A stretch of 584 nucleotides of DNA. It comes from Escherichia coli (GTDB lineage: Bacteria; Pseudomonadota; Gammaproteobacteria; Enterobacterales; Enterobacteriaceae). Position numbers and translations under genes: made by a program. Shown here piece after piece: positions 2 through 584 of the stretch (position 1 is the stretch's first letter; every line of letters begins with the position of its first letter). The notes beneath the pieces are model-generated. The model did not search any database. It had not been told where the DNA came from and saw only the letters and a list, made by a program, of their open reading frames with translations. Location of the stretch: assembly GCF_003334335.1 (NCBI RefSeq), contig NZ_QOWQ01000168.1. One strand, 5' to 3'.

Positions 2-484
2 AAGCAGGCGATGGTGGGGATAGTCGGGAGTATCGGCAGCGCCATTGGCGGTGCTTTCGGTGGTGGTGCGTCTGCCTTCACGGGGACGGCCATTCAGGCT
101 GCGGCGGCGAACTTCCATTTCGCGACCGGGGGATTTACGGGGACGGGGGGTAAATATGAACCTGCGGGGATTGTTCATCGCGGGGAGTTTGTCTTCACGA
201 AGGAGGCGACCAGCCGGATTGGTGTCGGCAATCTGTACCGCCTGATGCGGGGCTATGCGGAAGGTGGTTATGTCGGCGGTGCCGGAAGTCCGGCGCAGAT
301 GCGGCGGGCGGAAGGCATTAATTTTAATCAGAACAATCACGTGGTGATTCAGAACGACGGCCCCAACGGGCGGGCAGGGCCGCAGCTGATGAAAGCGGTG
401 TATGAGATGGCCCGCAAGGGGGCACAGGATGAAATCCGGCTGCAGTTGCGTGATGGCGGTATGTTATCAGGGAGCGGTGGATGA
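2..484 (+). CDS. H: Tail tape measure protein, C-terminal portion (lambda gpH-like). The CDS is 5'-partial: the reading frame is open from position 2 with no upstream stop, so the ATG at 11 is an internal Met codon, not the start. Stop codon TGA at 482..484.
   Basis: Open frame from the window edge to the TGA at 482-484. The translation (…GGYVGGAGSPAQMRRAEGINFNQNNHVVIQNDGPNGRAGPQLMKAVYEMARKGAQDEIRLQLRDGGMLSGSGG*) matches what I recall of the C-terminal end of lambda tape measure protein gpH. It is immediately followed by a gpM-like gene with the same ATGA overlap as the lambda H-M junction. The Gly/Ala-rich hydrophobic stretch is typical of tape measure C-terminal regions. Codon usage is GC-rich and coherent throughout. 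Confidence 0.85.
   Translation, partial: KQAMVGIVGSIGSAIGGAFGGGASAFTGTAIQAAAANFHFATGGFTGTGGKYEPAGIVHRGEFVFTKEATSRIGVGNLYRLMRGYAEGGYVGGAGSPAQMRRAEGINFNQNNHVVIQNDGPNGRAGPQLMKAVYEMARKGAQDEIRLQLRDGGMLSGSGG
470..474 (+). promoter_or_regulatory. Shine-Dalgarno / ribosome binding site for the gpM-like gene, embedded in the 3' end of the tape measure coding sequence
   Basis: GGGAG at 470-474, 6 nt upstream of the ATG at 481. There is no intergenic space, which implies translational coupling. Confidence 0.55.
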
Positions 485-584
485 AAACCTTTCGCTGGAA
501 AGTGAAGCCGGATATGGAGGTGAACTCGCAGCCATCGGTGCGTGAAGTGCGTTTTGGTGACGGGTACTCACAGCGTATGGCGGC
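481..584 (+). CDS. M: Minor tail protein M (lambda gpM-like), N-terminal 34 codons. The CDS is 3'-partial: the last complete codon ends at 582 and the gene continues past the window.
   Basis: ATG at 481 is preceded by GGGAG at 470-474 with a 6-nt spacer. The translation MKTFRWKVKPDMEVNSQPSVREVRFGDGYSQRMA closely resembles what I recall of the lambda gpM N-terminus (MKTFRWKV…VRFGDGYSQR…). Its position directly downstream of the tape measure gene matches the conserved H-M-L-K-I-J order. Confidence 0.85.
   Translation, partial: MKTFRWKVKPDMEVNSQPSVREVRFGDGYSQRMA

Follow-up and report, generated by a model that had tools for sequence, protein, structure and literature searches.

The window, by which we mean the whole stretch of 584 nt analysed here, holds two partial genes in overlapping frames on the plus strand, which we assign to H, the tape-measure gene, represented by its 3′ end, and to the distal tail gene M, of which the 5′ end is present (Table 1). 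According to the ORF listing the first frame is open from nt 2 up to a TGA stop at 482–484, and it is listed by the ORF tool from the ATG at nt 11 only because it continues beyond the 5′ limit of the window. The second frame starts with the ATG at nt 481 and runs off the 3′ end, and its translation reads MKTFRWKVKPDMEVNSQPSVREVRFGDGYSQRMA. The M peptide KPDMEVNSQPSVREVRFGDGYSQRMA quoted in the initial annotation occurs exactly in this translation. Nucleotide 1 and nucleotides 583–584 belong to partial codons, and 2–584 are the correct coordinates of the two genes.

Table 1: Features of the window; residue numbers refer to gpH of phage lambda.
Feature	Position (nt)	Strand	Remarks
3′ end of H	2..484	+	160 codons (nt 2–481) corresponding to lambda gpH 694–853, plus TGA (482–484)
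Gly/Ala-rich, mildly hydrophobic segment, gpH 694–730	2..112	+	33/37 aa identical to lambda
Invariant core, gpH 731–779, FHFATGGFTGTGGKYEPAGIVHRGEFVFTKEATSRIGVGNLYRLMRGYA	113..259	+	49/49 aa identical to lambda
G6 homopolymer inside H	143..148	+	G5 in PhiR5_1, the sole difference between window and PhiR5_1
Variable linker, gpH 780–817	260..373	+	22/38 aa and 72/114 nt identical to lambda
Terminal helix, equivalent to gpH 818–849	374..469	+	21/32 aa identical to lambda
Shine–Dalgarno-like AGGGAG, 6 nt 5′ of the M start	469..474	+	read from the sequence; function putative
ATGA overlap of M start codon and H stop codon	481..484	+	read from the sequence and the ORF listing
5′ end of M (distal tail/tail tip protein)	481..584	+	34 codons plus 2 nt

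The same 4-nt overlap of H and M is found in lambda, where H ends at 13103 and M starts at 13100, and likewise in the prophage of E. coli SK1144 and in Escherichia phage PhiR5_1, the two relatives described below. Lambda has a GGAGG at the position matching the AGGGAG of the window. By analogy with lambda, translation of M is probably coupled to that of H via the ATGA overlap and the AGGGAG upstream of it.

All minus-strand or off-frame ORFs comprise at most 66 aa, lie inside the H or M frames and were treated as chance and not as genes. A search against Rfam with permissive filters revealed no RNA family at E-values up to 1 on either strand of the window, and a promoter and terminator scan of both strands gave no site. 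The sole repeat from the repeat scan of the window was a 13-nt direct repeat in two copies (77–89 and 134–146; TTCACGGGGACGG and TTTACGGGGACGG), each of which encodes FTGT; this repeat is probably due to chance. The first FTGT copy depends on a Phe at residue 719 that is specific to the window, as SK1144 shows STGT and lambda SGGT at this place.

Assignment of H and M to tail protein families

The best solved-structure matches for both window proteins are gpH and gpM of phage lambda. The H part matches the lambda tape measure protein (PDB 8iyk_H) with an E-value of 4.8e-73 and the M part residues 1–32 of the lambda tail tip protein M (PDB 8iyk_M) with 1.8e-13, so that both matches are far above chance. 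The H fragment also scores 125.8 bits with TIGR01541 (NCBIfam tape_meas_lam_C), for which the curated cut-off is 104.75, with residues 1–120 of the fragment aligning to model positions 213–332 of 332. Furthermore, it matches PHROG 4346, 24 and 1716, the tape-measure families 24 and 1716 being found at E 1e-59 and 2e-42, respectively, and several other tape-measure PHROG families match stretches taking in the invariant core. For M, PHROG 14 (minor tail protein) was found at E 1.3e-11, and an NCBIfam search with the 34-aa piece gave no match.

A Pfam search with the 160-aa H fragment gave no match, because the Tape_meas_lam_C model (PF09718) stops at residue 701; residues 702–853 of the H of a full-length relative lie outside any Pfam model. 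Of H, no more than the final 160 codons are contained in the window, and the two-domain architecture of about 853 aa was read from the SK1144 relative, whose H (853 aa; 98.8% identical to the window fragment) contains both TMP_2 and Tape_meas_lam_C. Full-length relatives thus show these two domains in H and Phage_min_tail in M, and the SK1144 M, which is identical to the window over the 34 aa, spans positions 1–108 of the 108 positions of PF05939 (E 4e-38). The core segment FHFATGG...LMRGYA is itself outside every Pfam model.

The gene neighbourhood also belongs to this assignment. M lies directly 3′ of H in the window, the two being joined by the ATGA overlap, and the further neighbours, read from PhiR5_1 and SK1144, are G/T on the 5′ side of H and L as the gene next to M. 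The best matches are not to some unrelated family but to phage tail proteins that are located within tail modules.

Divergence from lambda and anatomy of the H fragment

Aligned to lambda (J02459), the window shows a DNA identity of 77.4% in a local alignment (131 differences in 580 columns) and of 75.3% when aligned by codon. The H part is identical to gpH 694–852 at 127 of 159 residues (79.9%) without any gap, leaving 32 differences, and the M part shares 27 of its 34 residues with gpM 1–34 and differs at the other seven. The initial annotation had described both proteins as resembling those of lambda without being identical to them, and these values bear this out. One could still ask whether the window stems from phage lambda proper, or from a vector or control DNA derived from it, as the gene order and the ATGA junction are shared with lambda and the 49-residue core matches lambda fully in protein. 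However, 131 DNA differences and amino acid differences in both proteins speak against this reading, and in the phage search lambda itself appears in the 60–80% identity band. With about 77% identity in DNA and about 80% in protein, lambda is ruled out by direct alignment, and we give the whole reading practically no credence.

Most of the changes between the window and lambda are synonymous, and in the conserved part this is overwhelmingly so. The dS value of 0.86 means that synonymous sites are nearly saturated, and dN/dS amounts to 0.035 for codons 694–779 and to 0.40 for codons 780–853. Within the DNA of the invariant core 20 of 147 bases differ from lambda, all of them silently. As the changes are mostly silent, the core is unchanged in protein and a high dS goes along with a low dN/dS, both H and M are under purifying selection rather than in decay. 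The comparison with lambda thereby flags a 49-residue segment of the proposed gpHC that is fully conserved despite near-saturated silent change, which is mildly useful.

In lambda, gpH sets the length of the tail and is cleaved to gpH* and gpHC in a glycine-rich region near residues ~690–710, with a weak transmembrane prediction for residues 691–712 (PMC12617516). The Gly/Ala-rich segment of the window falls into this region. In the window the first 50 residues of the H fragment consist of Gly and Ala to 50% and have a mean hydropathy of about 1.1. The lambda gpHC is a C-terminal fragment of ~14 kDa that is attached to gpI in the tail tip by its last helix, three copies of residues 818–849 being bound to the gpI trimer within the tail-tip cone, and gpH ~690–817, including the core segment, is unresolved in the cryo-EM structures (PMC12617516). 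The C-terminal coiled coil of gpH rests on the gpI plug, below the gpM hexamer (PMC11101478). The terminal helix of the window matches the 32-residue chain 9e7m_Ha with an E-value of 2.1e-8.

The H part of the window encodes the final ~160 residues of the tape-measure protein and, following lambda, would correspond almost exactly to gpHC. This piece would be cut from the ruler part gpH* after tail assembly, and within the tail-tip cone three copies of its terminal helix would rest on gpI. The M part encodes the N-terminus of the hexameric distal tail protein, predicted to link the tip complex to the gpV tube.

Relatives, gene order and mosaicism within H

The closest phage record is that of Escherichia phage PhiR5_1 (PV340545.1), which is 99.8% identical to the window and differs in one base. 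At record positions 8144–8148 it has a run of five G, the frame of H is shifted and two CDS are annotated for this gene (locus 5911–8244 and 8244–8483). Since the phage in this record had been propagated, a sequencing error in the homopolymer is likelier here than a real frameshift. A literature search for PhiR5_1 gave nothing relevant.

Among complete E. coli genomes 3503 of 5426 show megablast matches to the window, and 104 complete E. coli records are at least 99% identical to it. The best of them reach 582 of 584 positions, these prophages encoding Ser instead of the Phe of the window at nt 78 and Leu instead of its Ile at nt 434. An exact match of the window was not found in the collections searched, where the best hits differ by one indel or two substitutions, and a 121-nt exact pattern gave no match in the viral contig collection. 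The allele group is common in E. coli prophages and in Stx-converting phages, with 92–95% identity to many of them. The initial annotation had expected such elements to be common in Escherichia, Shigella and Salmonella; this holds for E. coli and for Escherichia and Stx phages, but no Salmonella phage record matched the window at megablast sensitivity. Its remark that this is not a novel system is correct; in the 104 records the region is already annotated. A record named after Campylobacter was also present among the phage-search matches to the window.

In both loci inspected, PhiR5_1 and the SK1144 prophage, the tail genes follow the order Z-U-V-G-T-H-M-L-K-I-J-lom, and the full module begins upstream of Z with portal, protease, D, E, FI and FII. 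The genes that had been predicted around the window, L, K, I and J downstream and G/T, V and U upstream, are therefore all present in these two relatives (PhiR5_1 99.8% and SK1144 99.7% identical to the window). The order beyond H-M is taken for the window from these 99.7–99.8% identical relatives and not from its own flanks.

The head genes in both relatives also bear on the question whether the window might come from a non-phage tail-derived element, such as a tailocin or a gene-transfer-agent-like particle, with borrowed lambda-type tail genes. Tape-measure and distal tail proteins are generally common to such elements, but in both relatives the tail genes adjoin those for portal, protease, decoration protein, major capsid protein, FI and FII, and the named phages matching the window are all lambdoid or Stx-converting, which makes such an origin highly improbable.

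A decaying remnant of a defective prophage, with H and M no longer functional, deserves somewhat more attention, as many lambdoid prophages of E. coli are defective, the rest of the element lies outside the window and a single G missing from the run splits H in PhiR5_1, the closest phage record. Nevertheless we consider it unlikely: the frames of H and M are intact throughout the window, the substitutions in the conserved part are overwhelmingly synonymous when compared with lambda, and the same allele is found in PhiR5_1, whose deposited record is that of a complete phage genome, the host being E. coli C. Moreover, the SK1144 copy is located within a complete head and tail module that carries no pseudogene flags up to J.

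With lambda, SK1144 and PhiR5_1 aligned three ways over the region beyond the window, the SK1144 H is 99–100% identical to lambda over lambda nt ~11,340–12,410 and then 71–89% identical through the window, M and L; the flanks of this lambda-like middle (lambda coordinates 11,340–12,503) show 63–89% identity to lambda. The middle of the PhiR5_1 H is a third, much diverged version with 42–90% identity in 150-nt windows. PhiR5_1 and SK1144 differ strongly from each other up to nt 12,503, and from there to about nt 13,440 only three differences are left. There are thus two independent junctions at lambda nt 12,412–12,503 (H residues ~624–654), 40–70 codons 5′ of the window and near the proposed boundary between gpH* and gpHC, and downstream of them SK1144 and PhiR5_1 both carry the window allele. 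These junctions are ordinary lambdoid mosaicism, and that the relatives illustrate such mosaicism inside gene H is a mildly useful by-product of the analysis. Because both junctions lie near the gpH*/gpHC boundary, and because few parts are as diverged as the gpI-binding helix (21/32), with gpI of the SK1144 relative likewise only 66% identical to that of lambda, it is conceivable that gpHC travels with M-L-K-I as one co-adapted tail-tip cassette and recombines separately from the ruler part of H, a tentative idea that we regard as rather doubtful at present.

Some peculiarities of lambda records were also observed. In the reference J02459 K is annotated as a protein of 199 aa (14276–14875), and the N-terminus with which the 247-aa K homologues begin (MTQTESAILAHARRC...) is encoded 5′ of it by an ORF in another frame (14133–14363). 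The corresponding K region has 273 nt in J02459, NC_001416, OR474059 and OR974322 and 274 nt in many other lambda or lambda-derived records (for example LC730321, KT232076, PV340536, DE3), and therefore a 1-nt difference in the reference may truncate the annotated K. In MW057783.1, 'Campylobacter phage CJLB-4' (48,361 bp; host Campylobacter jejuni), the K region is 99.6% identical to lambda and the total length is close to that of the lambda genome; this looks like a misnamed deposit of lambda DNA, which might for instance have served as a sequencing control.

Comparison with known tail modules

Taken together, the window almost certainly covers the H-M junction in the tail module of an E. coli prophage or phage, a lambda-like siphovirus whose allele group differs from that of lambda. 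The initial annotation had proposed a lambda-like phage or prophage rather than lambda, and the best matches of both tail proteins, the module in lambda order in the relatives and the DNA identity of 77% agree with it, while none of the results speaks against it. An inducible prophage, a defective prophage and a free phage are each compatible with the window as its source. As a piece of a routine lambdoid prophage tail, annotated in public genomes as tape measure protein and phage tail protein, it matters little.

Its nearest known counterparts are PhiR5_1 and the prophages of E. coli SK1144, clone D i2/i14, ZH063 and others, which share 99.7–99.8% DNA identity with it over the whole window; for SK1144 the value is 99.7% and the N-terminus of M is identical. 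Compared with lambda, the tail proteins of the SK1144 prophage are 58–91% identical to their counterparts and Lom 43%. The Stx1- and Stx2-converting lambdoid phages (such as VT1-Sakai and Stx2_14040), in which the two genes bear the annotations tape measure H and minor tail protein M, follow with 92–95% DNA identity and carry a slightly different allele, from which no stx context can be inferred for the window.

Lambda is the best described system of this kind. Its gpH (853 aa; PDB 8IYK, 8IYL, 8K35 and 9E7M) has the same length and register (694–853, no gaps) and shares with the window the Gly/Ala-rich start, the identical core 731–779, the position of the C-terminal helix and the stop codon overlapping the M start, but 20% of the residues differ, mostly in 780–853, where 22 of 38 positions are identical in the linker and 21 of 32 in the gpI-binding helix. 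Similarly, gpM of lambda (109 aa; PF05939) has the N-terminus MKTFRWKVKP, the motif VRFGDGYSQR and the start context in common with the window, but differs at 7 of the 34 residues present, and the M of the full-length relative is 79.8% identical to gpM.
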